DNA of 64,000 nt from a virus. Taxonomy: Duplodnaviria; Heunggongvirae; Uroviricota; Caudoviricetes. Positions 6,462 to 52,761 of the stretch are shown here, piece after piece. The stretch's first letter is position 1, and each line of letters begins with the position of its first letter. Location of the stretch: positions 32,749 through 96,748 of the IMG/VR virus record IMGVR_UViG_3300009285_000507. One strand, written 5' to 3'. A program made the translations under genes and the position numbers. The notes beneath the pieces were generated by a model. That model searched no databases. It saw only the letters and a program-made list of their open reading frames with translations, and was not told the DNA's origin.

Positions 6462-6463
6462 AT

Positions 6464-6802: not shown

Positions 6803-6805
6803 GGT

Positions 6806-14278: not shown

Positions 14279-14285
14279 TGTATGT

Positions 14286-26834: not shown

Positions 26835-27902
26835 ATGGGATTACTTTCAACTTATGACATCATACAGGATAGCAAGATTAATTTTTGCTTTCCTTTTGTA
26901 AAGAATCTCACCTCGAATATCTCAGCAAACGCTAACACTGGTGATATTTGGGTATCCCATAACCTGTTTGTTTTGGGGGACATCTCAGCAAATGGAATTC
27001 AGGGAACACTAGGTTCATTTGTTGTTACAGATTTTACCATTAACGGTGACGCAAGCTTTAATGGCAGTGTTGCATTTGCTGATCCTATTGTTGGTGGCAT
27101 CTCTGTTGAAGGCGAAGGTCTTCCAATAGCGACGTTCTCAAGACCTTCAGAGAGCACTTCTCTTTTCTACTCGGCCATTGGTAACATCAATCAGTCACGT
27201 ATAAGTTCAACAGGGTCAATAGTTTTCTTTAACAACGACCCAACTGGTGATGGTACAGATGGTGTTCAGATTATGCAGCTCAGCAGCAATGGAGTTAACA
27301 GTGGCGACAAAGGTACTGTTAACATTTATGGTGAGCTCGTTGTTGATGACATTAACAAGGATGGTCTAGTACTTAATGTAGGTACAGGATGCTTCTTCAA
27401 TGGAGCTAACGGTGGTACTGGTGACATCGCAAAGTTTACACGTACAGATGAGAATACCTCGGTTATCATCTCTGCTGTGAGTAACGTTGACTCACGTATT
27501 AGCTCAACAAAGAAACTAAAGCTTGTTGTAGCTGCTACAGATGGCATTACAGGTACCACAGCAATTGAGATGAGTGGTAATACAATCACCTTTAATGGTG
27601 ATGTTCTGTTTACTAATGGTCTTGATCTGGGTGACGTTACTTTTAACAATGCTTTAGTTGATAATGACCTTACAGTTTCGGGTTCATTTAGTGCACCAGG
27701 AGTACCACACTTTTTCAGCCAGACATATAATAGTGCAAGCTCCTACCTAGTTGTTCATTCAGTTAATAACATGGTACCAATCGTTCAGATATACTCAGCC
27801 AACAAACAGTATGGTGCTGACAGCATTGATGTTGTAGATGCTAATTCAGTAACTGTTAGCTTCAATGCTTCTTATGATGTAACGATTTCAGTGGTAGGGT
27901 AG
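26835..27902 (+). CDS. tail fiber-like protein (355 aa), paralog of the next gene at its C-terminus
   Basis: G/T/N/S-rich beta-type sequence. C-terminal SVTVSFNASYDVTISVVG parallels the ...NTVNCYVTVVG end of the 798-aa fiber. Confidence 0.45.
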   Translation: MGLLSTYDIIQDSKINFCFPFVKNLTSNISANANTGDIWVSHNLFVLGDISANGIQGTLGSFVVTDFTINGDASFNGSVAFADPIVGGISVEGEGLPIATFSRPSESTSLFYSAIGNINQSRISSTGSIVFFNNDPTGDGTDGVQIMQLSSNGVNSGDKGTVNIYGELVVDDINKDGLVLNVGTGCFFNGANGGTGDIAKFTRTDENTSVIISAVSNVDSRISSTKKLKLVVAATDGITGTTAIEMSGNTITFNGDVLFTNGLDLGDVTFNNALVDNDLTVSGSFSAPGVPHFFSQTYNSASSYLVVHSVNNMVPIVQIYSANKQYGADSIDVVDANSVTVSFNASYDVTISVVG

Positions 27903-27912
27903 GAGAATATAA

Positions 27913-30309
27913 ATGTCACGTATACTTGGTAATATTACTGCTAATGATTCTGTATTCAATAACTTAACAGCTACCAACACTGTTAACCTTGCTACAGTTA
28001 TTATGCAAGATGTGTCGGTTAATGGAAGACTTGTTGCTGCTGATTTATATGTTGCAGGTGACGTTGTAACAGTAAACAGTATTGAGATTAGTGGTAATCT
28101 ACATGCAAGCGGTAACACTGTTCTCGGTGATGAGCCTTTTGATACACTAACAGTTAATGGAAACTCCTACTTTGCTGATACAGTTAACATTATTGGTTTA
28201 CTTGATGTCCATACCATTAGCCACAATGGTGGTGTAACATTTAACACTCCTATCAATGCTGTTGATATGGTAATTGAAGCCGGTAACATTGATGCAAGTG
28301 CAGTTGACAATCTTACTCTTCAGGGTTCAAACGGAGTAAAGATTGAGATTGTTGGTGGGGATGACCTAATTAACCTTGTATCACCTCTGGTAAGTATAAA
28401 CTCAACGCTTGACGTTGCTACTATTAGTCATAGCGGTAATATTGACATTGGTGGTACATCAACCGTGTCAATTATTACTCTGTCAAACAACGCTGGTTCT
28501 GTTATTAAGTTGTGGGATGACAGTGGTATTGAGTTAAATGCTGCTAGTTATATTGACCTAAACTCACCTTTCGTAAACATTACAGCAAATGGTACACTAG
28601 ACGTAGCCACCATTGCTCATACAGGTAACATCCTTATCGGCAGCGGCGACGGCTACACCATTGACATGAACTATGACTCAGATAGCTTCGCAGTTTCTTA
28701 CCCCTACATTAACCTTAATGCAGAGATTGTTACTGTCACCACAAATGGTGTTCTCGATGTAGCCACTATTAGCCATCTGACAAGCGAGATGCAAATTTCA
28801 GCTAACCTTCAGATTACAGGAGATAATGGTAATGTTCGTATCACTGATGAAGGCATTATCCTATCATCAAATGTAGCTACAACTACCTCTATTATTGGTG
28901 GTGCACTTGACGTAGCTACTGTTAGCCATAACAGTACCATTAATCTGACAGCGGCAAACTTCAATCTAAATGCAGTGTCAGCAGAGCCAACATCACTAGC
29001 TCTTGGTGATGATGGCTGGGCTAATATTTCAGCTAAGAACGGTATCAACTTTGACGTTGCCTCAGGTTCTATTGAGGTTAATATTACTGAAGACCTAATT
29101 GAACTCAGTGGTAACACTGCTATTGCTGGCACTCTTGATGTAACCACTGTATCACACAATGGGCAGATAGGGATAACAGCCACAGAGGTTCAAATATGGG
29201 GTAACGTAGGGGCACAGAACAACACAGACGAGTGGAGAGTTTACAAGATTCTAATGGGTGGTGGTGGAGATACCCTACAAGTAGGCGAGGGTAACACAGC
29301 ACTTCTGTTTGATCTTGGTACAAATACTGTGACACTAACCGCAAATGGTACCCTGGATGTAACCACAATATCACATAGTGGTGGTACCAATGTAGTAACA
29401 GGTATAACACTAAATCAGGGTATGCAGATAGAGGGTACAGGCAATGGCTATGGATTTCAGTTTGGCGCAAATGACAATGCCATTCTATTTACAGACCCAG
29501 GAATCATAACGCTAAGGGCAGAGGATAGTATTGAGTTGTTTAGTGATGTTCTAATATCTGCTAACAAGTCCTTGGACGTAGCTACCATCTCCCACCTATC
29601 AAGCGAGATGCAGATTTCAGCTAACTTGCAAATCACTGCCGATAACGCAAATGTTCGCTTCACTGATGAGGGGATTGTTCTTTCTTCTAACTCCGCTACG
29701 AGTACTTCGATTATAGGTGGCGCACTTGATGTAGCCACAATTAGCCACCTAACAAGTGAGATGCAGATTTCAGCCAACATTCAGATTACAGGTGACAATG
29801 GCAATGTACGCATCACCGATGAAGGTATTATTCTATCGTCCAACTCTGCTACTTCAACTTCTATTATTGGTGGTGCTTTAGATGTAGCTACTATCAGTCA
29901 CTTATCGGGAGAGATGCAGATTTCCGCTAACCTGCAAATCACGGCTGATAATGCAAATGTGAGGTTCACAGATGAGGGTATTATATTCTCGTCCAATGCA
30001 GCTACAACCACCTCTATTATTGGTGGTGCACTGGATGTAGCTACCGTGTCACACAACGGTGGAACTACGTTTAACACTGGGGTAATGATTGAGGGGGCAA
30101 GAGTTTCACGCACCTATGAATCACCTAACCTCACAGCCAATACATTCTACACTGTTAACCATGCTCTTGCTGTAGCGTATCCCCAGGTAACAGTTATCTC
30201 AAACAATGAAGTTGTAATTCCTTGGAAGGTTAGTTACAACGATACAAACAATGTAGTGGTTGATTTCAGTGGTAACACTGTTAATTGCTATGTGACAGTG
30301 GTAGGGTAG
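27913..30309 (+). CDS. tail fiber/receptor-binding protein with tandem roughly 50-aa repeats (798 aa)
   Basis: At least four near-identical copies of LDVATISHLTSEMQISANLQITGDNGNVRITDEGIILSSNSATSTSIIGGA plus degenerate LDVxTxSHxG units. Confidence 0.55.
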   Translation: MSRILGNITANDSVFNNLTATNTVNLATVIMQDVSVNGRLVAADLYVAGDVVTVNSIEISGNLHASGNTVLGDEPFDTLTVNGNSYFADTVNIIGLLDVHTISHNGGVTFNTPINAVDMVIEAGNIDASAVDNLTLQGSNGVKIEIVGGDDLINLVSPLVSINSTLDVATISHSGNIDIGGTSTVSIITLSNNAGSVIKLWDDSGIELNAASYIDLNSPFVNITANGTLDVATIAHTGNILIGSGDGYTIDMNYDSDSFAVSYPYINLNAEIVTVTTNGVLDVATISHLTSEMQISANLQITGDNGNVRITDEGIILSSNVATTTSIIGGALDVATVSHNSTINLTAANFNLNAVSAEPTSLALGDDGWANISAKNGINFDVASGSIEVNITEDLIELSGNTAIAGTLDVTTVSHNGQIGITATEVQIWGNVGAQNNTDEWRVYKILMGGGGDTLQVGEGNTALLFDLGTNTVTLTANGTLDVTTISHSGGTNVVTGITLNQGMQIEGTGNGYGFQFGANDNAILFTDPGIITLRAEDSIELFSDVLISANKSLDVATISHLSSEMQISANLQITADNANVRFTDEGIVLSSNSATSTSIIGGALDVATISHLTSEMQISANIQITGDNGNVRITDEGIILSSNSATSTSIIGGALDVATISHLSGEMQISANLQITADNANVRFTDEGIIFSSNAATTTSIIGGALDVATVSHNGGTTFNTGVMIEGARVSRTYESPNLTANTFYTVNHALAVAYPQVTVISNNEVVIPWKVSYNDTNNVVVDFSGNTVNCYVTVVG
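28741..30060 (+). repeat. tandem roughly 150-bp coding repeats within the fiber gene
   Basis: Near-identical DNA blocks at about 28755, 29575, 29725 and 29875. Further degenerate copies lie between 28180 and 29400. Confidence 0.7.
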
Positions 30310-30449
30310 TTATATGCGCTCCATAGGTGATATAACTCTGTCAGACACTAAGAGTGTTGATGGTCTGTTATAGTGGAGAACACACCACCTTATATAGTTG
30401 GTGAGATGGTGAGCACAGTAATAGAAGTGATAGCGGAGGTAAAACAATA

Positions 30450-32066
30450 ATGGAATATTTTGGTCAGCATAAATTCGATGATAAGGTGTCAGCCAATACC
30501 TACGAGAACCTGTCGAGTACTCTTATTGGCGTTAATGGGTCTAAGATAACTGACACTCAATCGTCATTGACAAACTACAACGGCATAGACAACAACACAG
30601 CGGTATCCCTTGCGTATGACTCGGCTAATATGGTTGTTACCATGTCTGCTAACGGTGCATCGGCGTATGTGGCAGGGGTAAAGTATCCACTGCCTACTCA
30701 GACCTTTAACCATGTTGATGTCACCGACTCATACTTCTTGCAGGTACTTAGCAGTGGAGCAGTTACATTTAACACAGCATCTTGGAATTTAGTAGACGAT
30801 GCCCCGATAGCAGCAGTGTACTATAATGCCACTACAGGCAAGGGAATCCTAATGGATGAGAGACACCCTGCTTCAAGTGGTATGAGCAATGCAACTCACC
30901 TGTACGAGCACACTCACGAGGGTACACGGGTTACAAGCGGGTTTGCTATTTCAAGCTACACCGTCAACTCAAATGTCCTTGTTGATGTTCAACCAACAGT
31001 GGGCACAGGGGTTATTGCAGACGAAGACCTGTACACTACTATCCCCGCTGTGTCAGCTAATACTTCCTATAACTGTTGGTATCGCAGTGGGGCAGATGTG
31101 ACTGGCGAGTGGGATTGGCAAGACAGTAACACTCCATTTATCAACAACACAACCAACCCGTTCTATAATCAGTTGTCGGGTGGTAATTGGACAAACACAG
31201 AAATCAGCACAATCAATAGTTGGTTCAACGTGTGGGTATGTGCAGTACCTACAATAGACAATAAACACAAGATGGTATTTATCCAAGGACAGGTTCTCCA
31301 CACATCAAGCGCAACTGCGTCAGCAGCTTCATTTGCCACAGCTATCTCATGGGGGGCACATGTACCATTTAGAGAACTTGCCCCACTATATCAGATTGTC
31401 TGCAAGCGTGGAACAGTGGCAGGTACTTCGTTCTACACTGTAATTGAGTCTGTTAATCGTCTGATTGGTACAAGGTCAGTGCTTAGTGGTATTGTTTCAG
31501 CCACGTCACACTCTGCGCTATCTAACCGTACAGATGCTAACTCACACCCTGCGACAGCGATTGCGCCAGACACTACTAATTTCAGTAAGCGTTTGTCAAC
31601 AGCAGACACCACTGTACAAGCAGCATTAGACACGCTAGATGATTCACCAATGACAAGAGCGTTCGTACTTAGAGACGTAAATACAACTGTTACTACATCT
31701 GTTGACGGTTACCCTGCGTACAAGACAGGAACAACAACTCAAATAAGAGTCCCATTAATTAACGTTTGGGGTTCAGAGACAGTAGTTGCTGCTATGGGAA
31801 ACTCTTGTTTTGGCTTGAAGACAGATAACGCAGGAGTACCTGCATATGGTAGAATTAAGATTATTGTTAATGGAGTTTCTTACTACAGTGGGGATATATC
31901 AACTAATGCTACGGATTACGTTGACCTAACACCTACAGTGAACATAAGTGTTAACGACATTGTGAACGGTAATGTCACAGCTTCAACTGAGGTATGTATT
32001 GGTACTACCGGAAACACAGCGTCAATCATTCCTGGCAAGGTTTGTATAAACATTAAATACATTTAG
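30450..32066 (+). CDS. structural protein, possible tail spike/receptor-binding protein (538 aa)
   Basis: S/T/N/G-rich beta-type composition downstream of the fibers. No enzymatic motif recognised. Confidence 0.4.
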   Translation: MEYFGQHKFDDKVSANTYENLSSTLIGVNGSKITDTQSSLTNYNGIDNNTAVSLAYDSANMVVTMSANGASAYVAGVKYPLPTQTFNHVDVTDSYFLQVLSSGAVTFNTASWNLVDDAPIAAVYYNATTGKGILMDERHPASSGMSNATHLYEHTHEGTRVTSGFAISSYTVNSNVLVDVQPTVGTGVIADEDLYTTIPAVSANTSYNCWYRSGADVTGEWDWQDSNTPFINNTTNPFYNQLSGGNWTNTEISTINSWFNVWVCAVPTIDNKHKMVFIQGQVLHTSSATASAASFATAISWGAHVPFRELAPLYQIVCKRGTVAGTSFYTVIESVNRLIGTRSVLSGIVSATSHSALSNRTDANSHPATAIAPDTTNFSKRLSTADTTVQAALDTLDDSPMTRAFVLRDVNTTVTTSVDGYPAYKTGTTTQIRVPLINVWGSETVVAAMGNSCFGLKTDNAGVPAYGRIKIIVNGVSYYSGDISTNATDYVDLTPTVNISVNDIVNGNVTASTEVCIGTTGNTASIIPGKVCINIKYI

Positions 32067-32301: not shown

Positions 32302-32643
32302 ATGGCACCTGATGATCAAGAGATGAACGCGGTGAAGTCCCAGGTTAACAACATCGAGAACACTGTAGGTAATATCTCGCAGGATATCAGGGAGATACGT
32401 GAGATGGCGCACTCCTTTGCCAAGGAAGTAAGAGAAGCTATCTCAACTCTAGTTGGTATGCAGACAGAGATTAAGAACCTAACTGAGAGAGTAAATAAAA
32501 GAGATGCACATTGCGAGAAGTACAACCCAGAGTTCATTGCAGTACAGCAGCAGGTATCCTGGCATAACAAACTCCTTATGATTTTAGGCACAACCACAAT
32601 AGGTGCCATTGCTGCTGCATTATACAAACTAATCTTAAAGTAA
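32302..32643 (+). CDS. coiled-coil protein with C-terminal transmembrane helix (XhlA-like or holin-like candidate)
   Basis: Roughly 85-aa heptad region followed by LLMILGTTTIGAIAAALYKLIL. Confidence 0.4.
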   Translation: MAPDDQEMNAVKSQVNNIENTVGNISQDIREIREMAHSFAKEVREAISTLVGMQTEIKNLTERVNKRDAHCEKYNPEFIAVQQQVSWHNKLLMILGTTTIGAIAAALYKLILK

Positions 32644-32646
32644 CAC

Positions 32647-32675
32647 TTTAAAAAATACCTCCTACCTAGTATAAT
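32647..32675 (+). promoter_or_regulatory. candidate promoter (TTTAAA-N17-TAGTATAAT)
   Basis: TATAAT at 32670-32675, 28 nt upstream of the ATG at 32704. Confidence 0.4.
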
Positions 32676-32703
32676 ATAAGTGTAAGTAAAAACCACATAG
32701 GAG

Positions 32704-35016
32704 ATGCATGTGCGTAAGATTCTAATCATTGGCGATTCTCCGGCTCAACACACAGGGTTCTCAAACCAGATCAGACTAATTGCAAACGGGTTCATTAACA
32801 ATGGTAGCGAGGTTGTGTCCATTGGGTTCAATGCAAAGGACCAAGGTATCTCAATGTTCCAGCCACATTGGAAGCTATATGGTGTGAAGGGTACAAGTGA
32901 GTACCACGAGATCTATCACATCATTCTTGTTGAGCAGCCAGATGTAATTATTTCAGTTGCTGAGTTTAGCTGGACAATGGATATTGCAAAGCTGCCTGAG
33001 AAGTGGCGTAACCGTTGTATTCACTGGGTGGCGGTTGACTGCGAGCCAATCAATGAGCCTGCAGTTCATAGCCAGATCTGGTTCCGTAAGCATCTTGTAT
33101 TCATGGCTGATTATGGCAAGAGAATATATAGCACGTATTTAGATAAACATCCTAATGAGCACACTGTTTCAACTATTTATCTGGGTGTTGATACTGAAGT
33201 GTTCAAGCCTGTAGCAGACAAGAAGGAGCTTAAGAAGAAGGGTGGCTTCGAGGACAAGTTTGTAGCACTATTTGTTTCGCGTAACCAGTGGAGAAAGCGT
33301 CCTGATCTTCTTATTCGTGCGTGGGCTAAGTTCGTAAAAGACAAGAAGGATGCAGTTCTTATTATGCACACTGACGTGAGTACTGTGTCAACTAATCTTC
33401 AGACAGGGTACAACCTTCCTTACCTGATTGAACGTTTTGGTGTGAAGGACTCATGTGGTCTATCAAGTAAGCTGCAGTGCTCCACAGAAGAACTGGTCAG
33501 CCTAATGAACATGGCAGATGTACATTGTTTGCCATCAGCGTCAGAAGGATTCGGAGTAACACTGATTGAGACAATGGCATGTGGTGTTGTCAATATCACT
33601 ACCAAGAGCTCAACTATGCCTGAGATCATTGACAACCATGGAGTTCTTATTGATCCAATTGCCTTTGACATCCAGCCAGACCTTGGTGTTGATCGTCCAT
33701 TGATGGACACGGACAAAGCAGCTGAAGCACTCGAGGTGATGTACCAGACATGGAAGAACAATGTTTCCATTGAAGAAGAAAAGACTGCGATGCGTGAGTA
33801 CATCATTGCAAAGTATAGTGCACCAGTAATTCAGAAGCAGTGGGTTGATTTGGTTGAGAATATAGTTTGTGTAGAAAATGAGCCAAGAGGGTGTTTTATT
33901 GGTAGTACGGCTCGTAGCATTCTTATCCAGGGTAATGATAGCCCAACATTCTCTTACGGAGTAGTGTGCAGGGCACTAGCTGAGGAGTTCAGCAAACGTG
34001 GGTATGTTGTAGAGCACACTAACTTCACAGTGGATCACTGGAACCAGAACAAGGAGCTAGCACGTACAGCATGCTACAATAGCTATGCACACCGTAACTT
34101 TGATTACCACCTGAGAGTATCCTATCCACTAGACAGTAAGCTTATGGTTGGTCGGACAAATGTAAATCTTGTTCCTTATGAATGGCAGAACCTTCCTAAG
34201 TCGTGGGTCCAGGAATCATGGAACCCAGGTTTGCACTATGTTATGCCTTTGTCCAAGCATGAGGAGTTTGTATTCACTGGCTCAGGTGTTCCAAAAGAAA
34301 AGGTTAAAGGCATGGGTCTGGGGTACAACCAGTCAGTGTTCAACACTGATGCCACGCCACATGATTTCTCTGACATCAAGAAAGATACATTTGTAATCCT
34401 TATGCTTGGTAGTCTAATGTCAGTTGATAGCCGCAAGGGTGTTAGCTATGTTCTGGATGCATATACAAAAGCATTTAGCAAGTCAGACAATGTTGCCCTT
34501 GTTATCAAGACACTGCAGGCTCCTAACATGCCTAACTTTGTGCAGCAGGTTCGGCAGCACATGCAGGGCAAGGAGAATTATCCGCGCATTACTGTGATGG
34601 ATTCATTCATGCCACAGGAAGCTATCGCTGGGTTGTACAAGAGGGCCAATGTAGTAGTTAGTCCCAACCGTGGAGAAGGGTTCAACCTATGCGCTCTTGA
34701 GGCTATGGCTGTAGGTACACCAGCTATTATCACAGCCGGTGGTGGTAGTATGGATTTCACTTCAAAGGATACAAGTTACTTGGTAACCTGCAGCACAGTT
34801 GCTTGTGGAGCTCCAGCATACATTGATGCAAAGGATACAGACAATGGCTGGTTCAATCTTCAGCCAAGTATGGACTCACTTGTAGCTCATATGCGTAACT
34901 CGTATGATGATCGTGAGACACTGAAGAAGAAGTCAGAGGCTGGTATTAAGAAGGCTCAGATGTTTACATGGGGTGCTGCAGTCAGAGCCTTCGAACTTAT
35001 GGTTGGTGCTGCATAA
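32704..35016 (+). CDS. tandem GT4-family (GT-B fold) glycosyltransferase, 770 aa
   Basis: Two complete units, each ending in the GT4 E-x7-E region (SEGFGVTLIETMACGV and GEGFNLCALEAMAVGTP). Each has a preceding Rossmann-like half (FVALFVSRNQWRKRPDLL and FVILMLGSLMSVDSRKG). Confidence 0.7.
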   Translation: MHVRKILIIGDSPAQHTGFSNQIRLIANGFINNGSEVVSIGFNAKDQGISMFQPHWKLYGVKGTSEYHEIYHIILVEQPDVIISVAEFSWTMDIAKLPEKWRNRCIHWVAVDCEPINEPAVHSQIWFRKHLVFMADYGKRIYSTYLDKHPNEHTVSTIYLGVDTEVFKPVADKKELKKKGGFEDKFVALFVSRNQWRKRPDLLIRAWAKFVKDKKDAVLIMHTDVSTVSTNLQTGYNLPYLIERFGVKDSCGLSSKLQCSTEELVSLMNMADVHCLPSASEGFGVTLIETMACGVVNITTKSSTMPEIIDNHGVLIDPIAFDIQPDLGVDRPLMDTDKAAEALEVMYQTWKNNVSIEEEKTAMREYIIAKYSAPVIQKQWVDLVENIVCVENEPRGCFIGSTARSILIQGNDSPTFSYGVVCRALAEEFSKRGYVVEHTNFTVDHWNQNKELARTACYNSYAHRNFDYHLRVSYPLDSKLMVGRTNVNLVPYEWQNLPKSWVQESWNPGLHYVMPLSKHEEFVFTGSGVPKEKVKGMGLGYNQSVFNTDATPHDFSDIKKDTFVILMLGSLMSVDSRKGVSYVLDAYTKAFSKSDNVALVIKTLQAPNMPNFVQQVRQHMQGKENYPRITVMDSFMPQEAIAGLYKRANVVVSPNRGEGFNLCALEAMAVGTPAIITAGGGSMDFTSKDTSYLVTCSTVACGAPAYIDAKDTDNGWFNLQPSMDSLVAHMRNSYDDRETLKKKSEAGIKKAQMFTWGAAVRAFELMVGAA

Positions 35017-35058: not shown

Positions 35059-35313
35059 ATGAAAAAGACAATCTGTGATAAGTGTTTTAAGCTTTTGACT
35101 AAGAACGATTTAGATAATAAGCTGGTATACTTAGGTGATCTGGAACTTTGTTCAGAGTGCAGTAAAGAGCTGCACTCCATCATAAAGATGCTGTATAGCT
35201 CGTTTTCATTTAATAGAAAGAGAGCCATGGATAACGCAGTTAGAGATTTCATGTCAGATGAGGACAAGAAGCCATCTGCATGGAGCATAATTAAATCCTG
35301 GTTCACATGGTAG
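35059..35313 (+). CDS. small zinc-finger protein (84 aa from ATG at 35059)
   Basis: CDKCFKLL...CSECSKEL. GAGG Shine-Dalgarno. The track ORF starts at a TTG at 35032. Confidence 0.4.
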   Translation: MKKTICDKCFKLLTKNDLDNKLVYLGDLELCSECSKELHSIIKMLYSSFSFNRKRAMDNAVRDFMSDEDKKPSAWSIIKSWFTW

Positions 35314-35570
35314 ACATGAAATTTAAGGACAAAATTCTTCACGCCTTGGTAAGCTTCATAATCTGCTGGGTCCTGCTGTATGGACAATCACTCAGTTCAG
35401 TGTTGTTTGTGTGCGCTGTAGCTCTGGGTATTGGCGCAGCAAAGGAAATGTGGGATCACTATAACCCACCACACTGCTGTGATTTATGGGATTTATTTGC
35501 AGATCTTGCTGGCATTATGTTATTCTTGGTATCAATTTATTTGTATACTATTCTAGGAGGTGTTAAATGA
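35307..35570 (+). CDS. small membrane protein, holin-like (87 aa)
   Basis: Two to three hydrophobic helices (LVSFIICWVLLYG, VLFVCAVALGIGAA, LAGIMLFLVSIYLYTIL). Confidence 0.4.
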   Translation: MVDMKFKDKILHALVSFIICWVLLYGQSLSSVLFVCAVALGIGAAKEMWDHYNPPHCCDLWDLFADLAGIMLFLVSIYLYTILGGVK

Positions 35571-35977
35571 CACCAGAAATTAAGGCAGCATTAGTAAATG
35601 CATTGACCCAAGCAGATCTTTGGCAGTATGTGTTTGGCGTTCTTGCAGTAGTTGGTGCCCCAGTTTGGGCAGCTTTTAAGATGTGGGCAGCAAAGAAGAC
35701 AGAGGCACTCCGTAAGAAGAACGATCTGTATGAGGAAGCCTACAAGCTAGTAGAGGTTGCAGTTGAGCAGGTGTACGTTGAAACTGTTCGTGCGTTGAAG
35801 GCAAAGAAGGGCAAGCTTAAAAAGAAGGATATCCTTGAAGCACGTGACGAGGCAACTAAGATTGCAATCAATCTGGGCAAGACAAAGGGTATGGATATTC
35901 TAGCTATTCTTGGTAAAGAGTACATGCCTGTTATCATTGCAAAGATTGTAACTTATGCTAAGCCATCAAAGGGCTAG
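35567..35977 (+). CDS. membrane-anchored protein with charged helical C-domain (136 aa)
   Basis: N-terminal TM YVFGVLAVVGAPVWAAF followed by a K/E-rich helix. Could be i-spanin-like. Confidence 0.35.
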   Translation: MTPEIKAALVNALTQADLWQYVFGVLAVVGAPVWAAFKMWAAKKTEALRKKNDLYEEAYKLVEVAVEQVYVETVRALKAKKGKLKKKDILEARDEATKIAINLGKTKGMDILAILGKEYMPVIIAKIVTYAKPSKG

Positions 35978-35986
35978 GAGGAACGT

Positions 35987-36442
35987 ATGAAGAAACTGTT
36001 GGGTTTGGTTCTACTCTGTGCTATTCTAGCTGCTCCAGGATGTGTTGGTACAAAGTACTATATTCAGGATGGTCAGGTAACAAACAAGTTTCTGCAGGTT
36101 AGCACTAATACCATGATGACCACACGTGCTACATGGTATAATACCCAAGATGCATTTGCTAAAGCAAAGATTGCTGGTATGATGACAGATGCACAGTGGA
36201 ACAGTTGGAGTTCAGTTGATGCTAAGTTCAGAGCATCTCAGAATGCATTAACAGAGGTATTAAAGGTTTACGCTGGGATGTTACAGCAGCTTGCTACGGC
36301 AGATCAGGCTGGAGATGCAGCATCAGTATCACAGATTGAAAGTAAGATGTCAGCTAAGGAAGCTCTTATTAATTCAGCACTTGCAAACATCACAGGTATT
36401 CTTGTTGAAGGGCAGAATCTTCTTACTGCCGTCCAACAGTAA
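35987..36442 (+). CDS. secreted protein or lipoprotein (151 aa)
   Basis: Signal peptide MKKLLGLVLLCAILAAPGCVG with Cys at the end of the h-region (imperfect lipobox). Confidence 0.45.
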   Translation: MKKLLGLVLLCAILAAPGCVGTKYYIQDGQVTNKFLQVSTNTMMTTRATWYNTQDAFAKAKIAGMMTDAQWNSWSSVDAKFRASQNALTEVLKVYAGMLQQLATADQAGDAASVSQIESKMSAKEALINSALANITGILVEGQNLLTAVQQ

Positions 36443-36645: not shown

Positions 36646-36819
36646 ATGAACTGTTGTGGTAACAACGAAGGTTGGTGCAGGAAGGATACGTGCGCTTGTG
36701 ACAAACATGTATGTGCATTGTTCGAAGACACAAGAACACCTGGAGTAAAGCGTTGTACTGAGTGTGGCAAGCTATATAGTACAGAGTCAAACCAATCCGT
36801 CAGCGTGAAGCTAGGGTAA
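36646..36819 (+). CDS. small Cys-rich protein (57 aa), not in ORF track
   Basis: MNCCGNNEGWCRKDTCACDKHVCALFEDTRTPGVKRCTECGKLYSTESNQSVSVKLG. Stop embedded in the terminator stem. Confidence 0.3.
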   Translation: MNCCGNNEGWCRKDTCACDKHVCALFEDTRTPGVKRCTECGKLYSTESNQSVSVKLG

Positions 36820-36838
36820 CCCCCTAGCTTCTTTTTTT
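36807..36838 (+). terminator. rho-independent terminator
   Basis: GAAGCTAGGG-TAAC-CCCCTAGCTTC followed by TTTTTTT. Confidence 0.7.
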
Positions 36839-36840
36839 CC

Positions 36841-36856
36841 CTTACTTATACATATG
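36841..36856 (+). promoter_or_regulatory. late-promoter-like motif CTTACTTATACATATG
   Basis: Immediately after the terminator; 27 nt upstream of the ATG at 36883. Confidence 0.4.
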
Positions 36857-37704: not shown

Positions 37705-39567
37705 ATGGAACCTAAGAGTCCAGTAGTTCGCCGTAAAAAGAAAGTTAAAGTCGAGGCACTTCCAGCACTAGTTCCTAAGAACGAATACTTTGGAACTGGT
37801 GGTAATGAGGCTCTAGCCAAAGCTGCTGACGTACAGGATGGTGAGTACTTACAGGTACAGACATCCAACAAGATGTTCCAGTTCTATCAGGACTACGTAA
37901 AGCCAGCAGCTTCACGTGACCAAGTATACGTGCAGATTGAAGATATGTCCTATGACTCAATCGTTAACTCAGTCCTTGAGCTGTATGCTGAGGATGCCTT
38001 TGGTGATGTTCTAGAGGGTAAGGATAATCATATTTGGTGCTCATGCCTTAACAGTAAGGTTCGTGATATCGTTGATGAGTTCCTTGAGTCCTCAGGTATT
38101 CTTGAGCGTGTATGGTCTATCACGTTCCAACATATTAAGTATGGTGACCACTTCGTTAAGGTTGATGGCGAACGTGGTCATGGTGTTACAAATTTAGATT
38201 ACGACATCCATCCAAAACTTATTAAGAGATATGAAAAGAATGGTAGCCTATTCGCATTCTCGTCAGCTGCATTCAGCCAGGATCATAATGAGGTAACTTA
38301 TTTTACTCCATGGCAGTTTGCACATTTCCGTAATGGTACTCAGAGACTTCGTGAGCGTCTGTTCTACGGAAGCATCAAAGAAGGAACCTATGGTGATCCT
38401 CTGCTAAGCCAGTCAATCCTCACATGGCGCAAGCTTAACATGATGGAAGACTCAATGGTGCTGTACCGCAATGCCAAGATCAGTCGTCCAATGATTGTAA
38501 AGATCAACATGGATGCAGTTCCAAAGGCTCAGCAGCGCGAGTACTTTGACAGAGTTATTAATCGCTTTGAGTACACATCCAGCTTCTCTCCTAATGAGAG
38601 TATCTATCAGCAGCAGGCTAAAGCATTGTCAGCTTCTGAGCCCATTTATATTCCTATGTCTAAGGATGGTGGGGATATAACTCATGAAGACTGGAGCGAA
38701 GATCCCTCAGTTTCAGGCATTATTGACATTGAATATATGCGCAACAAGCTCTATGGGAGTTTCAAAGTACCACCTCCGTTCATTGGCATCACTGCTGATA
38801 TGGGTGGACTTAACTCTGATAATTTGTACATGATGTCTATGCGTTATGCACGTACAGTACGGCGTATTAAGATGCAGGTACTGTGGGGTATTAAACGTAT
38901 ATGCCGTATCCATTTAGCTTATCGTGATCCACTACTACTTCGTCATGACTTTGACCTAAACACTGCATCAGTTACCACAGCGGAAGATCTGTCACGGGCA
39001 GAGACAACCAAGACAATCATTGGGTTCCTCTCTGAGTTTGCTCGGTTGCTTGAAGGCGTTGGGGTTGAGTATGATCGTTACAAGTTTGCTAAGTGGGCAA
39101 TCAAGCATCTTAACCTAAATGACTTTGATGTAAATGATATCCTTAAGAAGGTTGAGACTGAGCTTGGTGCAGCACCACAGGGTACACCAATGGGTGGTGC
39201 TCTAGGAGGCGTAGGTGGCGGTATTGACCTAGGTGCACCAGCACCTGTCCCAGGACCAGAGGCAGGCCCAGCTGCTCCAGGAGCGTCACCTATGACCCCT
39301 GGTGCTATGCCTCCAGAGGGTATCCCGCTTGATCAGTTCCTAGCACAGAAGGAAAAGACACTAGGTGAGATCAAGATGGAGAAGAAGACCAAGCTAACCA
39401 AGTTGTTTGGTGAGCTAACCCCAACTGATAACAAGGATGTAACGGCGGCTACGCCAGATAAATATGAAGACAAAGGTAAGGGCAAGTATGACTTCAAGGA
39501 AGTTAGAAAGTTTGTACGAGTTTCAGATAGTAAAGGAAAGAGTAAAGAGGTACAAAGCAAAGAGTAG
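37705..39567 (+). CDS. putative portal protein (620 aa)
   Basis: Large protein immediately upstream of the protease/scaffold and capsid genes. Gly/Pro-rich flexible C-terminal region. Assignment is positional and by size, not by motif. Confidence 0.45.
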   Translation: MEPKSPVVRRKKKVKVEALPALVPKNEYFGTGGNEALAKAADVQDGEYLQVQTSNKMFQFYQDYVKPAASRDQVYVQIEDMSYDSIVNSVLELYAEDAFGDVLEGKDNHIWCSCLNSKVRDIVDEFLESSGILERVWSITFQHIKYGDHFVKVDGERGHGVTNLDYDIHPKLIKRYEKNGSLFAFSSAAFSQDHNEVTYFTPWQFAHFRNGTQRLRERLFYGSIKEGTYGDPLLSQSILTWRKLNMMEDSMVLYRNAKISRPMIVKINMDAVPKAQQREYFDRVINRFEYTSSFSPNESIYQQQAKALSASEPIYIPMSKDGGDITHEDWSEDPSVSGIIDIEYMRNKLYGSFKVPPPFIGITADMGGLNSDNLYMMSMRYARTVRRIKMQVLWGIKRICRIHLAYRDPLLLRHDFDLNTASVTTAEDLSRAETTKTIIGFLSEFARLLEGVGVEYDRYKFAKWAIKHLNLNDFDVNDILKKVETELGAAPQGTPMGGALGGVGGGIDLGAPAPVPGPEAGPAAPGASPMTPGAMPPEGIPLDQFLAQKEKTLGEIKMEKKTKLTKLFGELTPTDNKDVTAATPDKYEDKGKGKYDFKEVRKFVRVSDSKGKSKEVQSKE

Positions 39568-39958
39568 TAGCGAAGACCTTTCCTATCTGAAGAACCTTAT
39601 TCAAACAAATGAATCCTTCGTCCTAGATAATCTTAACTTATTCAAGACAGAGGATTTGTGTGTCCTTCAGGAGGCACTATTCCTATCCCACTTTAGGGAG
39701 TACTCCAAGGACAAACCATTCTTCCGTAACTTCCAGAGAGTGTTGTCTGGAAGCCTGCAGGAAGAGAGCATGAACAAGATAGTGTCTAGCGCAATGACAC
39801 ATCTGTTTATTGAATTTGAGAAGCTGGGAAATGTTAAGTCTATCTTCCAACGGTTTAATAATATACTCAGAAAAGTATGTGAGCAATCAGATTATGCATT
39901 TGCAATCGAAGGAATGAAATACATTTTAGGACTAGAGGTAACCAATAATGAGCGATAA
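39464..39958 (+). CDS. hypothetical protein (ORF overlaps 3' end of portal gene; true start probably internal)
   Basis: 164-aa ORF overlapping the portal gene by about 100 nt in another frame. Downstream in-frame Met codons exist. Confidence 0.3.
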   Translation: MKTKVRASMTSRKLESLYEFQIVKERVKRYKAKSSSEDLSYLKNLIQTNESFVLDNLNLFKTEDLCVLQEALFLSHFREYSKDKPFFRNFQRVLSGSLQEESMNKIVSSAMTHLFIEFEKLGNVKSIFQRFNNILRKVCEQSDYAFAIEGMKYILGLEVTNNER

Positions 39959-41420
39959 GAAAATGCTTACAGTAGCTTGTGAGAGTACTGGTGGCTTCAC
40001 AGCTGTTGCTGGCATTACCAGTAACCCAGCTATCATAGGCACTTATGAAGGTATCGTTCAGCAGATTGATACTGCCAACCAGAACAAGCGTCGGTACACT
40101 AAGAAGTTCTGGGACACATGGCTCAATCAGGAATCAACCAAAGAGAAGCTTGAAGGCAAGCTACTACTTGGTCAGTACTCACACCCACGTAACCTTGATG
40201 ATGGTTCATTCTTTGAGAACCTAACCTCACATGCAATCACAAGCCTTCGTGTTGAAGGCAACAACGTCATGGGTAAAGTTGAAGTATTCAATACCTCAGC
40301 TGGTCGTGACGTTAAAGTTCTTCTAGATGCAGGTGTTCGCCTAGGTGTTAGCTCACGTGCTCTTGCTGTATCAGAGTACAACGGTGAGTTCGAAGACATC
40401 AATGAAGGTGAGATCTTCGGTTGGGATTATGTCATTGATCCCTCAGTTAAGTGTGCAGTACTAAAGCCTATTGGCGAATCATTGGATATTAGAAAGGGTG
40501 CTAAGTCACTTATGGAAAGTATCGCTAAGTCTAACTCTGATGATTCCAAGGTTATTATGGAAGCACTTGGCTACAAGAAAGTTACAGAGGAAGCAGTTAA
40601 GGAAGTAGTAGCAGAGCCAGTAGTTGAGGCACCTAAAGAAGAGACCACCACTGAGAAGGAGATCAACCCAATGGAAAGCACAGAAGTCCAGGAACTACTT
40701 GAGAAGGCAGCAAAAGAAAAGGTTGATCTCCAGGAGCAGCTAGCTAAGGCTAATGAAGAGGTTGCATCCTTCACTGCTAAGATTGACACAGTGAAGAGCA
40801 ATTATCTAAAGATGCGTGAAAGCTTCATTAACACAGCCAAGGACCTACGCTCTAAGATTGCAGAGAGCTCAGTTAAGATGGAAGAGGTTAAGGCAGAGGC
40901 TGATCGTCAGGTCCAGCTAGCAGATGGCCTTGTTGGTCGTATGCGTGAGAAGCTCAACAGCACTGAGTCAACTGGCGAAGTCCTTACGGAGAAGTCAGTT
41001 GTGGCTATTGAGAAGATGCGTGATATGATCAATGACCAGAAGGCAAAGCTTGCTGCAGCAGATGAGATGAAGGCCCGCTACGAGTCAGCTATTACTCGTC
41101 TTACAGCTAAGGTTAAGGAACTACAGGGTACCAATGAAGAGGTAGAGGTTAAGCTGGCTGGTGAGGCAGTACTAAAGAATCTAGGCCAGACTAACAATGA
41201 TGAGTTCCGCAGCCTTGTTGAATCGTGCAAGTCAGTTAAGGAAGTCAAGATGGTTGAGCAGCGTTACACTGAGCTACACGAAACAATGAAGGAAGCACTA
41301 CCTACAGAGATGATTAAGGTTGAGAATATTCAGCGTGAGATCGAGGACGAGCTAGGCAAGCAGGTTGATCCTGAAGTTAATCGCCTGACAAATGTTATAA
41401 AGAAGTCAGCTCGGCGTTAA
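39948..41420 (+). CDS. putative prohead protease-scaffold fusion protein (490 aa)
   Basis: N-terminal roughly 200-aa globular domain followed by a roughly 250-aa charged coiled-coil (EVQELLEKAAKEKVDLQEQLAKANEE...). Sits between the portal and capsid genes. Confidence 0.4.
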   Translation: MSDKKMLTVACESTGGFTAVAGITSNPAIIGTYEGIVQQIDTANQNKRRYTKKFWDTWLNQESTKEKLEGKLLLGQYSHPRNLDDGSFFENLTSHAITSLRVEGNNVMGKVEVFNTSAGRDVKVLLDAGVRLGVSSRALAVSEYNGEFEDINEGEIFGWDYVIDPSVKCAVLKPIGESLDIRKGAKSLMESIAKSNSDDSKVIMEALGYKKVTEEAVKEVVAEPVVEAPKEETTTEKEINPMESTEVQELLEKAAKEKVDLQEQLAKANEEVASFTAKIDTVKSNYLKMRESFINTAKDLRSKIAESSVKMEEVKAEADRQVQLADGLVGRMREKLNSTESTGEVLTEKSVVAIEKMRDMINDQKAKLAAADEMKARYESAITRLTAKVKELQGTNEEVEVKLAGEAVLKNLGQTNNDEFRSLVESCKSVKEVKMVEQRYTELHETMKEALPTEMIKVENIQREIEDELGKQVDPEVNRLTNVIKKSARR

Positions 41421-43112: not shown

Positions 43113-43838
43113 ATGCTACTAAGCTATATAGTAGACTATTTAGATAATTACTTTCAACCGATTCCTACAATTGAACCTGGGACACCAGAGAGTTGTGTAG
43201 CCCATGCTTTAGATTATTTTAACTGTGAGTGTGGCGAGACACGCTGTGATGAGATCAGCCCAACAATAGGGCAGAACAGATCTGCTGTTATTGATATGAC
43301 AGATCTTAATGCTATCTCAGTTGTAGATGTTATTCCTCGTGTACCTAACATGGTCAGTGAAGTTGGCAGCGTTGACAGTATCACTGACCTTATTCTTTTA
43401 AACTGGACAGATAAGATGCTGACTGGTGGTGGCGGTCAGTACCGTGATATGCAGCAGCTAATCCTTACAAGACAGTTTCTGGCCCAGTATCGTCAGTACT
43501 TTGGGCTCAGGTTTGACTGGAGATTCTTCCAGGAGATTGGCAGACTAACAGTAAACCAGATGCCTTATGGCGCAGTGTCATTGTTTGTTACATACAAGAG
43601 AGAGATCCCTGCTCATCCATTCTCACCTAATTATCGTTTGCAGGATAGGTTTGCATTCCGTTGGATCAAAGAGTACTCACTAGCTTTGTTCCAGTTGAGG
43701 CAGGGCGAAATACTATCCAAGGCAACAGCGGTAGGTCTTGATGTACAGGGTGCAAGCATTAAGCAAGAAGGTCTAGCAAGTAAGGAACGCTTGGAGCAGC
43801 AGTTGGCTAAGGCCATTCCAATGCCTTCTATTAGGTAG
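43113..43838 (+). CDS. hypothetical structural protein (241 aa)
   Basis: ORF directly after the capsid terminator. Confidence 0.45.
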   Translation: MLLSYIVDYLDNYFQPIPTIEPGTPESCVAHALDYFNCECGETRCDEISPTIGQNRSAVIDMTDLNAISVVDVIPRVPNMVSEVGSVDSITDLILLNWTDKMLTGGGGQYRDMQQLILTRQFLAQYRQYFGLRFDWRFFQEIGRLTVNQMPYGAVSLFVTYKREIPAHPFSPNYRLQDRFAFRWIKEYSLALFQLRQGEILSKATAVGLDVQGASIKQEGLASKERLEQQLAKAIPMPSIR

Positions 43839-51773: not shown

Positions 51774-51790
51774 TCTCCTAGTAGTATAAT
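51762..51790 (+). promoter_or_regulatory. candidate promoter (TTAAAA-N17-TAGTATAAT)
   Basis: TATAAT at 51785-51790. GAGGAG Shine-Dalgarno. ATG at 51813. Confidence 0.4.
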
Positions 51791-51812
51791 GTAAGAGGAC
51801 AGAGGAGATGGT

Positions 51813-52753: not shown

Positions 52754-52761
52754 GAGATTAC

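Follow-up and report, generated by a model that had tools for sequence, protein, structure and literature searches.

A phage gene fusing two GT4 glycosyltransferase units and its probable part in the synthesis of a methylated glycan

The fusion gene and its surroundings

The DNA analyzed here is a 64-kb stretch (hereafter, the window) of a phage genome of ~139.6 kb (contigs of P0194 and P0195); the window scans cover this stretch, with ~75 kb of the genome lying outside it. On the late/structural strand of the window lies a gene encoding two GT4 glycosyltransferase (GT) units in one chain (Table 1), flanked on one side by large ORFs without annotation and on the other by the genes for the portal, the protease, and the MCP (the last at 41553-43034). 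A preliminary description of this DNA placed the gene between fiber/structural genes and a membrane-protein cassette. The downstream membrane proteins are there, and the upstream "fiber" label is plausible, the three upstream ORFs (355, 798, and 538 aa, at 26835-32066) giving no informative match in family profile searches. The small protein with a lipoprotein-type signal suggests a diderm host. As a separate observation, the N-termini of the two zinc-ribbon-like ORFs, one directly after the fusion gene and the other opening the downstream cluster, are weakly alike (E 0.001 over 17 aa).

TABLE 1 Features of the fusion locus and of the downstream GT/methyltransferase (MTase) cluster, with positions in the window
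Feature	Position	Strand	Evidence or remark
Promoter-like element, TTAAAAAA-N-CTCCTA-N-GTATAATATAAG	32648-32680	+	~30 nt before the fusion start codon
Double-GT4 fusion gene	32704-35016	+	770 codons and stop from ATG 32704
N-type GT4/GT-B unit, aa 1-391	32704-33876	+	PHROG 2170, PF00534, AF2 secondary structure, BshA alignment; Rossmann domain 1 ~aa 1-165, Rossmann domain 2 ~aa 166-335, then C-terminal helices
E-x7-E motif 1, EGFGVTLIE, aa 281-289	33544-33570	+
Inter-unit linker, aa 392-402	33877-33909	+	pLDDT below 50
C-type GT4/GT-B unit, aa 403-770	33910-35013	+	PF13692, PF20706, Streptomyces-phage GTs, PDB 3oy2 B736L, AF2
E-x7-E motif 2, EGFNLCALE, aa 658-666	34675-34701	+
CxxC...CxxC zinc-ribbon-like ORF, 84 aa	35059-35313	+	directly 3' of the fusion gene
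Small membrane protein	35307-35570		two hydrophobic segments
Small membrane protein	35567-35977		one hydrophobic segment
Small protein	35987-36442		lipoprotein-type signal
Portal gene	37705-39567		downstream of the fusion gene
Promoter-like element, second copy	51762-51795	+	heads the downstream GT/MTase cluster
CxxC...CxxC zinc-ribbon-like ORF, 70 aa	51813-52025	+	first in the GT/MTase cluster
GT9-like (heptosyltransferase-fold) compact GT-B, 243 aa	52022-52753	+	structure only
GT-A glycosyltransferase, Glyco_transf_34/Nucleotid_trans	52762-53427	+	37.1 bits, cutoff 23
Putative SAM methyltransferase, Methyltransf_24	53420-54043	+	below cutoff
Possible GT-A glycosyltransferase, GNT-I/MGAT2-like	54031-54747	+	below Pfam cutoff
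FtsJ-like SAM methyltransferase	54737-55333	+	24.2 bits, cutoff 24.1

In the ORF listing of the window, the frame of the fusion gene runs without a break and gives a product of 770 aa from ATG. The AGGAG at 32699-32703 directly abuts this ATG but is spaced 6 nt from GTG 32710, and for this reason the true start is probably the GTG, for a product of 768 aa rather than 770 aa. The 768-aa product is the one called in public assemblies. The same protein was found intact (768-770 aa) on 28 contigs (1 + 19 + 6 + 2) from ENA, Logan, and JGI, one of which reaches 139.7 kb, the greatest length; these are independent assemblies, from several runs and pipelines. Thus, the single uninterrupted ORF reported earlier holds, and the fusion gene is real. 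In other phages, unfused pairs of this kind occur in N-to-C order with gaps of 0-20 nt, so that one error could imitate a fusion: a misassembly, or the deletion of a stop codon between two adjoining GT genes by a sequencing error, could have made the long ORF. Against this stand the identical protein on 28 independently assembled contigs and the presence of collinear fused homologues (26-30% identity) in unrelated phage contigs, and we regard such an artefact as next to impossible.

No cultured relative emerged: the DNA-level search against GenBank phages gave no match, and the protein search gave half-length matches only, with 22-27% identity. The source phage, itself uncultured, looks T4-like and lytic and comes from groundwater (site of runs SRR2177362 and SRR3989314), and no integrase was seen in the window.

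Two GT-B/GT4 units in a single chain

Domain annotation and structure prediction both gave two GT-B units, not one, in line with the two complete GT4 modules proposed in the preliminary description. Pfam Glycos_transf_1 (PF00534) matched with 132.3 bits (cutoff 26.4) over two stretches, of which aa 173-318 scored highest, and Glyco_trans_1_4 (PF13692) with 111.8 bits, again in two places (aa 173-318 and 563-695), the second giving the better match. The C-type unit was also matched by PF20706 (aa 550-762). Furthermore, PHROG 2170 ("glycosyltransferase") aligned end to end with aa 5-387, and Streptomyces-phage GTs of ~328 aa aligned to aa 408-756.

The AlphaFold2 (AF2) model of the protein (mean pLDDT 86) comprises four Rossmann-like beta/alpha domains, paired into two GT-B units that a disordered linker joins; pLDDT falls below 50 only at aa 392-401 and 227-232. 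The pTM is 0.59, and how the two units are oriented to each other is uncertain. Compared to the PDB with Foldseek, the model matched the GT4 enzymes 3oy2, MshA, BshA, PimB', and PimA with target-normalised TM of 0.74-0.78, the unit aligned being unspecified for each match. By hydropathy, the protein has no hydrophobic segment.

Each module also has its own E-x7-E motif, as described earlier; four other E-x7-E strings in the protein fall outside a GT4 context and are due to chance. Three collinear fused homologues (P0022, P0026, and P0080), with identities of 26-30%, retain without exception the glutamates E281/E289 and E658/E666 and the basic pairs R197/K198 and R577/K578. When bacterial tandem GT4s are added, for a total of 18 aligned sequences, E289 becomes nearly invariant and the other residues stay invariant. 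On these domain, fold, and motif grounds, both units are of the retaining GT-B/GT4 class, and retaining transfer is predicted for both.

Non-catalytic GT-B partners exist, such as GtfB with the GT4 enzyme GtfA, and one of the two modules could likewise be a degenerate GT-B, acting as a scaffold, a chaperone, or an acceptor-binding partner of a single catalytic module. Coherently with this possibility, Pfam Glyco_transf_4 does not detect the N-terminal acceptor domain of either unit, both having diverged too far; GtfA itself is here a very weak NCBIfam match only. However, the fused homologues and the wider tandem alignment keep the E-x7-E motif and the basic pair of each unit, separately encoded genes of both types (see below) have the same motifs, and both C-terminal domains exceed the Pfam thresholds. 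A single active module is thus improbable.

All 25 listed NCBIfam matches (MshA, BshA, EpsE, PglH, GtfA, and others) were far below their cutoffs, the best being MshA (94.8 bits vs 462.5), with BshA at 70.2 bits vs 273.7, so that neither the donor nor the acceptor can be read from homology.

Fusion of a recurrent phage gene pair

The fused collinear homologues were found by an exhaustive HMMER search. The word-indexed protein search, run with the single sequence and with an alignment, returned only the fusion protein itself and remote bacterial tandem GT4s. With either half of the protein as query, the fused P0022 and P0026 rank first or nearly first among the relatives; with the N half, the score of the closest standalone N-type protein (P0137, contig L096) falls between those of the two, and in that contig a C-type gene begins 4 nt after the N-type gene. 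A 1340-aa ORF beside this pair was considered as a counterpart of the 1338-aa ORF of the window and was found not to be homologous.

In the IMG/VR loci, N-type genes (~390-415 aa) and C-type genes (~360-375 aa) are encoded separately, as two genes instead of the one ORF of the fusion and its three collinear homologues. The pair is present in at least 22 of the 80 loci fetched. It is adjacent in N-to-C order in three loci (L004, L020, and L025), adjacent in C-to-N order in one (L051), and separated by 4-8 kb in ~20 further loci. The split genes retain the same donor-site motifs, and concatenated N+C pairs align well. A MAFFT alignment of the fusion with the separate N-type and C-type ORFs was dropped, the C-type sequences having landed on the N half. 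Since the same two subfamilies are usually separate genes in IMG/VR phage contigs, the gene is, judging from sequence, the fused form of a GT4 pair that recurs in phages, its members drawn from two distinct subfamilies.

The split pairs of environmental phages lie inside islands for glycan synthesis, among NDP-sugar epimerase, radical SAM, B12-radical SAM, and GT2-FkbM methyltransferase genes; the epimerase and radical-SAM genes are absent near the fusion in the window. Two phage backbones, unrelated to each other, carry fused homologues, in both cases where the tail module ends and adjoining a small methyltransferase. Besides the GT itself, no window gene has a homologue near the fused homologues, and the 80 IMG/VR loci gave just two incidental matches to window genes. 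Thus, no related phage was usable for comparison.

The fusion lends itself to a "Rosetta stone" argument, by which two GT4 subfamilies common in phages would act in the same pathway. It is also a compact single-gene target for the biochemistry of donor and acceptor specificity.

The downstream cluster and a shared promoter-like element

A downstream GT/MTase cluster had also been described, and it is present at 52022-55333 (Table 1). The product of its first GT gene, modeled by AF2 with pLDDT 95, matched 3tov in Foldseek (E 4e-7), as well as WaaC and TibC; it had no Pfam, PHROG, or NCBIfam match, and none of its 46 homologues has a Pfam domain. Sequence searches of the PDB with three proteins of the downstream cluster gave nothing significant. 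Counting the fusion, the at least five GT domains of the preliminary description can be reached, with uneven confidence: the two GT4 are firm, the GT34-like one passes the Pfam cutoff, the GT9-like one is a structure-only assignment, and the GNT-I-like one is below cutoff. No nucleotide-sugar synthesis gene was found in the 64-kb window.

The fusion gene and the cluster, ~17 kb apart, are each preceded by a composite promoter-like element, which has two copies in the whole window, at 32648 and 51762 only. The motif was derived from these two sites, so its uniqueness is descriptive and not an independent test. Its sharing by these two loci only suggests that the fusion gene and the cluster belong to one co-regulated pathway, and the element would tie together two separated glycosylation loci of one genome. 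The site of the fusion gene is sigma-70-like, whereas some neighboring genes are preceded by a ACTTATACAT-type motif instead, a difference that weighs against the reading proposed in the next section. Considered as a late promoter, ACTTATACAT was rejected, not being enriched over shuffles.

A candidate pathway for a methylated glycan and its acceptor

Phage-encoded glycosylation is, to our knowledge, poorly understood: virion glycans are documented in a few actinobacteriophages and in chloroviruses, and DNA glycans in several phages, and we know of no role assigned to the large glycan islands of aquatic and groundwater phages. For the fusion gene, we lean, by a narrow preference, toward a soluble bifunctional retaining enzyme with two GT4 modules, arisen by gene fusion and belonging to a co-regulated methylated-glycan pathway, with virion proteins as the guessed acceptor. 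The joining of an N-type and a C-type gene would have produced a single chain with two different modules, each binding its own nucleotide-sugar donor through the Lys/Arg pair and E-x7-E and transferring one type of sugar. As each module would transfer one kind of sugar, the enzyme could form two linkages as the glycan grows, in succession or in alternation. The donor sugars would be supplied by the host, the window having no genes for nucleotide-sugar synthesis.

The earlier wording, "processive or bifunctional," can be narrowed. The two halves are ~25% identical (over 218 aa) and match two separately encoded phage subfamilies, and for this reason the bifunctional part is the better supported. 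The product is thus most likely bifunctional, with two predicted linkages. Together with the GT9-like, GT34-like, and GNT-I-like transferases and the two SAM methyltransferases, it could build a methylated oligo- or polysaccharide, and the gene probably helps to make such a glycan during infection.

Virion proteins are our leading guess for the acceptor: one or more of them could be coated with glycan, as is the case in chloroviruses and in some mycobacteriophages. Like viral virion-glycosylation genes of the chlorovirus or mycobacteriophage Che8 type, the gene encodes a soluble GT (no transmembrane segment) near structural genes, and a GT/MTase cluster accompanies it; gene position is in itself weak evidence on the acceptor. 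According to a passage of PMC11256854 that cites Freeman 2023, mycobacteriophage capsids are glycosylated by phage GTs; the fusion protein has no Mycobacterium phage match at E 1e-5. In chloroviruses, a soluble GT34-like GT-A, methyltransferases, and a GT-B (A546L/B736L) glycosylate the capsid protein with a methylated glycan (PMC9614988). The predicted toolkit of our phage is the same, with soluble multidomain GTs, a GT34-like GT-A, and SAM methyltransferases. Chlorovirus B736L (PDB 3oy2), whose own role is putative, is the top structural match of the fusion (Foldseek E 1.8e-19) and among its best PDB sequence matches (phmmer E 5.1e-9 at aa 629-697); the identity is only ~17%. The chlorovirus set also includes A061L, a methyltransferase. 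On the other hand, chlorovirus A064R (GT34-like GT-A, GT, and methyltransferase) is GT-A based and not GT4+GT4, and the chlorovirus host is eukaryotic, unlike that of a phage.

A glycan of the host envelope is the main rival acceptor, and DNA is an unlikely one. The envelope case starts from WbdA, the mannan polymerase of Escherichia coli O9a/Klebsiella O3 and of the Pseudomonas syringae CPA locus, which carries two GT4 modules per polypeptide, one per linkage type, and works with a partner that adds methyl or phosphomethyl terminators (PMC11231755; PMC7820976). The fusion has the same dual-GT4 architecture, and its phage likewise encodes methyltransferases, of the small SAM type. The fusion could be a WbdA-like polymerase extending an Und-PP- or other lipid-linked glycan at the inner membrane face, which the phage methyltransferases would cap or decorate; LPS, capsule, or EPS would then be altered in infection, for example blocking superinfection or lessening progeny adsorption to debris. 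The lipoprotein-signal protein, with its hint of a diderm host, points the same way, as do the methyltransferase adjoining the fused phage homologues and the JGI label of the relatives, "glycosyltransferase involved in cell wall biosynthesis." Furthermore, of the bacterial tandem GT4s examined, the closest (P0166, Syntrophobacteraceae) sits in a polysaccharide-synthesis cluster, next to another GT4, a UDP-galactopyranose mutase, a GT2-GT2-GT4 protein, and a methyltransferase-sulfotransferase. This setting weighs against a virion acceptor, fitting a lipid-linked one at least as well.

However, WbdA belongs to an O-antigen locus and the fusion gene is phage-borne, and the Wzm/Wzt ABC transporter, Wzx/Wzy, a polyprenyl-phosphate transferase, and a WbdD-like coiled-coil kinase-methyltransferase are absent among the scanned window ORFs. 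Hydropathy showed no amphipathic or hydrophobic anchor, and the N unit has an acceptor domain that is not basic (pI 6.35), although subdomain pI values are not decisive on membrane association. Serotype conversion is, moreover, typical of temperate phages, and this one looks lytic and T4-like, with a window free of integrase. Altogether, we judge remodeling of the host envelope somewhat unlikely.

For DNA, one or both modules would add sugar to a modified base such as 5hmC or 5hmU, and the phage would so evade restriction. Among cultured phages, the MCP is best matched by that of Bacillus phage SP-15 (27% identity), the DNA of which is glycosylated, and an SP-15 GT is among the fold matches of the fusion model, at rank 37. 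BshA-, MshA-, and PglH-like phage GT-Bs do glycosylate 5hmC, with some of the clusters adjoining structural genes (bioRxiv 10.1101/2023.12.21.572611). Nevertheless, a C5-cytosine methyltransferase, TET/5mYOX, a dCMP/dUMP hydroxymethylase, and a base kinase are absent in the scanned ORFs of the 64-kb window, the two methyltransferases are of Methyltransf_24 and FtsJ types and not DNA C5-MTases, and no sequence match to SP-15 was found at E 1e-5. Judged on this 64-kb window of the ~139.6-kb genome, DNA hypermodification is, in our opinion, very improbable.

Returning to virion proteins as the acceptor, if the particles are decorated, T4-like phages infecting environmental bacteria would join the viruses shielded by glycans, which would matter for adsorption, for the stability of the particles, and for how phages are recognized by the immune system. 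A more ambitious reading, possible although doubtful, is that this T4-like groundwater myovirus, probably of a diderm host, has a self-contained pathway of five GT domains and two MTases, in two loci under a dedicated shared promoter, placing a methylated glycan on its own capsid or fibers. In such a case, chlorovirus-style "autonomous" virion glycosylation would be present in a tailed phage outside Actinobacteria, and the N-type/C-type GT4 pair could be the core of a widespread, unrecognized phage virion-glycosylation module.

Other two-unit and single-unit relatives

The dual-GT4 design is already known from WbdA and from giant-virus proteins, and the phage gene is a new example of it, not a new type of system. 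The giant-virus proteins are tandem GT1-family (Pfam "group 1") proteins of Terrestrivirus (A0A3G4ZM66), Yasminevirus (A0A5K0UAG6), Catovirus, and Tupanvirus, with two GT-B units per chain. Their predicted structures align with the fusion over both units (850-1070 columns, E 5e-27 and 3e-25), but with identity of 11-14% and high RMSD, so that the inter-unit geometry is not common to both; they also differ in coming from eukaryotic viruses. MshA, BshA, PimA, and PimB' have the fold and the donor-site motifs in common with the fusion, but each has a single module, and their acceptors are small molecules or lipids. Flavobacterium phage immuto has two adjacent GT genes, of which only the N-type is matched by sequence.

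An intact gene for two GT4 modules

The fusion gene is one uninterrupted frame of 770 codons, for which public assemblies call a product of 768 aa. The shorter product is the likelier one, because the Shine-Dalgarno-like AGGAG (32699-32703) abuts the ATG but lies 6 nt before the GTG at 32710. The protein is recorded at 768-770 aa on 28 contigs (the longest of 139.7 kb) and is identical from residue 4 on across them. These come from several runs in ENA, Logan, and JGI assemblies, one run being labelled groundwater metagenome (SRR2177362, PRJNA292723). An assembly accident as the origin of the long ORF is ruled out by the 28 contigs, several runs, and three assembly sources, and the single intact ORF with both GT4 units of the preliminary description is borne out. 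The GC content of the gene is like that of its neighbors.

The Pfam profiles Glycos_transf_1 (132 bits, cutoff 26.4) and Glyco_trans_1_4 (112 bits) each match two stretches of the protein, the best at aa 173-318 and aa 563-695. PHROG 2170, a phage GT profile of 374 positions, covers aa 5-387 end to end, and Streptomyces-phage GTs of ~328 aa align with aa 408-756. Four E-x7-E strings besides the two in the table lie outside the canonical GT4 context and are meaningless. The AlphaFold2 model, for which 18 sequences were used (mean pLDDT 86), has four Rossmann-like domains, that is, two GT-B units, with a disordered linker between them (aa 392-401); at a pTM of 0.59 it does not fix their relative orientation. 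Foldseek against PDB returned the GT4 enzymes B736L (chlorovirus NY-2A), MshA, BshA, PimB', and PimA, with target-normalised TM of 0.74-0.78. Profiles, motifs, model, and Foldseek matches thus agree with the earlier claim of two GT-B/GT4 modules, each with its own E-x7-E, and the protein corresponds to GT4 in all sequence and fold criteria. Every NCBIfam equivalog cutoff was missed (the best was MshA, 94.8 vs 462.5 bits), so the specific activity is not transferable by homology.

In a four-way alignment with the collinear fused homologues P0022, P0026, and P0080, E281, E289, R197, and K198 of the N unit and E658, E666, R577, and K578 of the C unit are invariant. The same holds in an 18-sequence alignment including bacterial tandem GT4s, except that E289 is nearly invariant. 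This conservation argues that selection acts on the donor sites of both units. The product is a soluble single chain of two GT-B/GT4 units with donor-site residues kept in each; hydrophobic segments are absent (the 19-residue Kyte-Doolittle mean peaks at 1.4).

Coordinates of the features in the window (aa positions refer to the fusion protein)
Feature	Position	Strand	Remark
Amidase_3 endolysin	3977-4576	-	
Family A DNA polymerase, RlaP-like nucleotidyltransferase	5721-8842	-	polymerase of T7/PolI type
355-aa ORF	26835-27902	+	
798-aa ORF	27913-30309	+	
113-aa ORF	32302-32643	+	coiled coil
Promoter-like copy 1	32648-32680		directly 5' of fusion gene
Fusion gene	32704-35016	+	
E-x7-E motif, N unit	aa 281-289		EGFGVTLIE, canonical
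E-x7-E motif, C unit	aa 658-666		EGFNLCALE, canonical
CxxC...CxxC ORF	35059-35313		
Three small ORFs	35307-36442	+	
Portal	37705-39567	+	
Prohead protease	39948-41420	+	
gp23-like MCP	41553-43034	+	
gp13-like neck protein	43113-43838		
Promoter-like copy 2	51762-51795		directly 5' of small ORF heading cluster
CxxC...CxxC ORF	51813-52025		
243-aa protein	within 52022-55333		no family match; pLDDT 95 model best fits GT9 heptosyltransferases
GT34/Nucleotid_trans GT-A	within 52022-55333		above Pfam cutoff
Methyltransf_24	within 52022-55333		weak match
GNT-I/MGAT2-like GT-A	within 52022-55333		weak match
FtsJ-like methyltransferase	within 52022-55333		
tRNA-like element	60028-60095	+	
136-aa ORF	61705-62115	+	

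Fused relatives and unfused pairs

The two halves share 25% identity over 218 aa (E 8e-6), which rules out a recent internal duplication. From 1.84 billion representatives, an exhaustive HMMER search recovered three relatives that are collinear over their full length: P0022 (766 aa, 30% identity), P0026 (778 aa), and P0080 (777 aa). It also recovered numerous bacterial multi-GT proteins, tandem or giant, that mainly match the C half. The query matches very large proteins (P0023-P0047; 1,000-5,089 aa) in up to six separate stretches, mostly with its C half; the majority come from Logan assemblies, and one cluster from a Brocadiales MAG.

IMG/VR was also scanned, and 80 loci were analysed with phmmer. 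On these phage contigs, GT4 genes matching the N half (N-type, ~390-415 aa) and the C half (C-type, ~360-375 aa) are normally separate: they are neighbors in N-to-C order in three loci (L004, L020, L025) and in C-to-N order in one (L051), and lie 4-8 kb apart in ~20 further loci. The fusion joins two GT4 subfamilies that are usually split into separate phage genes. The commonest companions of the pair are NDP-sugar epimerase/dehydratase (24 loci), radical SAM (19), B12-binding radical SAM (18), and GT2-FkbM methyltransferase (12) genes, and the loci holding it are glycan-synthesis islands. In the case of P0137, the closest standalone N-type (158 bits), a 367-aa C-type gene starts 4 nt later, followed by a GT2, a 972-aa GT4-radical-SAM protein, a SAM methyltransferase, and a GT29-like gene. 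On this phage-like contig (L096), the GT4-radical-SAM fusion lies at 11778-14696 and the GT29 (sialyltransferase-family)-like ORF (172 aa) at 16462-16980, with matches to SLH (weak) and Volactin immediately upstream.

The fused P0022 and P0026 are the best or near-best relatives of both query halves, with P0137 scoring between them for the N half; the simplest reading of the sequences would be one fusion event, then spread. The P0022 and P0026 contigs are phage-like (30-58 kb), and share no further gene with one another or with the window; the fused gene thus behaves like a mobile accessory one. In both, the fused gene ends the tail-gene block and adjoins a small gene that weakly matches Methyltransf_23; the P0022 contig encodes a Phage_tail_2 major tail protein. 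The latter contig (L084) also carries an IS605 OrfB/Cas12f-like TnpB gene (22247-22301) and a DnaN-like sliding clamp.

The phage, the gene neighborhood, and the acceptor

The window comes from a large myovirus (~139.6 kb) whose morphogenesis genes are of T4 type. Identity of its MCP to those of cultured phages does not exceed 28%, which marks the lineage as distant and uncultured. The phage also encodes a ligase, a RecA/UvsX-like protein, an Mre11-like nuclease, a clamp loader, and the endolysin. The T4-type portal, protease, and MCP are combined with a family A DNA polymerase and an RlaP-like nucleotidyltransferase; T4 itself has a family B polymerase. The 136-aa ORF, distinct from the MCP gene, has a weak N-terminal Gp23 major capsid match (E 1.4e-4, below cutoff), and identical copies of its product are on more than 22 contigs.

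The fusion gene lies on the structural strand, with large ORFs of structural type on one side and the portal on the other. The upstream ORFs (653, 355, 798, and 538 aa) gave no informative family match and can reasonably be considered putative fibers. A C-terminal segment of ~57 aa, matching phrog_21918 (unknown function), is common to the 355-aa (aa 291-347) and 798-aa (aa 732-788) ORFs, which may encode two fiber-like proteins sharing a C-terminal domain. The 113-aa ORF, whose Pfam matches are all spurious coiled-coil ones, has one C-terminal hydrophobic segment (tail-anchored) and is immediately 5' of the promoter-like site. On the 3' side come a small zinc-ribbon-like ORF, three small membrane/lipoprotein-signal ORFs, and then the portal. 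The first of the three (87 aa) has two hydrophobic segments, the second (136 aa) has a single N-terminal one, and the third (151 aa) bears a signal of lipoprotein type (LAAPGC). As a set they may be a lysis cassette of holin/spanin-like genes; in that case a diderm host would be indicated. The endolysin gene is far from these ORFs.

Among three candidate acceptors, we rank virion proteins first, because of the placement by structural genes, the tail-side placement in two other backbones, and a chlorovirus-like toolkit. The chlorovirus machinery (GT34-like A064R domain, methyltransferases, and GT-B A546L/B736L) is soluble and acts on capsid protein (PMC9614988), and PMC11256854 offers a precedent for phage capsid glycosylation. 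The second candidate is a lipid-linked glycan of the host envelope: P0166, a bacterial tandem relative (Syntrophobacteraceae), sits in a polysaccharide cluster with a methyltransferase-sulfotransferase, and the only characterised dual-GT4 design known is WbdA, but the window has no transporter or initiating transferase. No nucleotide-sugar synthesis gene, ABC transporter, or flippase was found among the scanned window ORFs. DNA ranks third: BshA/MshA-resembling GT-B enzymes glycosylate 5hmC in some phages (bioRxiv 10.1101/2023.12.21.572611), but the obligatory base-modifying enzymes are all absent from the window, its scanned ORFs including no C5-methyltransferase, TET-like dioxygenase, or hydroxymethylase.

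The downstream cluster and the proposed pathway

The structural matches of the 243-aa cluster protein are 3tov (E 4e-7), WaaC, and the protein heptosyltransferase TibC. The figure of at least five GT domains proposed beforehand is reachable, with three firm by sequence, one based on structure, and one weak.

A composite promoter-like sequence, TTAAAAAA-N3-5-CTCCTA-N3-GTATAAT(A/G)TAAG, occurs exactly twice in the 64 kb; further GTATAATATA sites at 10870, 22718, 55923, and 62835 differ in their upstream halves. It had 0 occurrences in 100 shuffles, which shows only that the sequence is uncommon, because the motif was derived from the same two sites; the real signal is the 14 extra bases common to both. 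The small CxxC...CxxC ORFs at the two loci have weakly similar N-termini (E 0.001 over 17 aa). The shared element and ORF suggest that the fusion gene and the cluster may form one co-regulated pathway. Another motif, ACTTATACAT, follows a T-run at 36807-36853, 56778-56787, and 57773-57782 (+), with variants at 35023 and 59906. Its copies are intergenic (before 36883, 56810, and 57811), and the one at 36807 is preceded by a strong hairpin of terminator type. The motif may act as a promoter specific to the phage; with one mismatch allowed it was not enriched over shuffles.

By analogy with GT4 enzymes and WbdA, each module would use one NDP-sugar and form one type of retaining linkage (PMC11231755; PMC7820976), and the fused enzyme would add two successive or alternating sugars. 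Being fused would hold the modules at 1:1 stoichiometry and let one pass the intermediate to the other. The GT9-like, GT34-like, and GNT-I-like proteins could add further sugars, and the two methyltransferases could yield a methylated or capped product.

The dual-GT4 design is already known: WbdA likewise has two GT4 modules in one chain, although its family's genomic context differs from that of the fusion gene, and giant viruses, too, are predicted to encode two-GT-B proteins (those of Terrestrivirus and Yasminevirus align across both units at 11-14% identity). The chlorovirus toolkit is mirrored in the phage by a GT34-like GT-A, methyltransferases, and GT-B. The novelty is modest. It lies in a phage subfamily that fuses N-type and C-type GT4s, in evidence for functional coupling of the two types, and in the promoter-level tie between the fusion gene and another glycosylation locus of this T4-like groundwater phage. 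That the phage has an autonomous pathway for glycosylating its virions, and that a widespread module is built around the N/C pair, is a tentative and rather doubtful proposal.

Immediately 5' of a NUDIX gene, a tRNA-like element reaches 35.1 bits against Rfam tRNA (gathering score 29) and is absent from the ARAGORN tRNA calls. With three non-standard acceptor-stem pairs and a shortened anticodon arm, it may be a degenerate or pseudo-tRNA.
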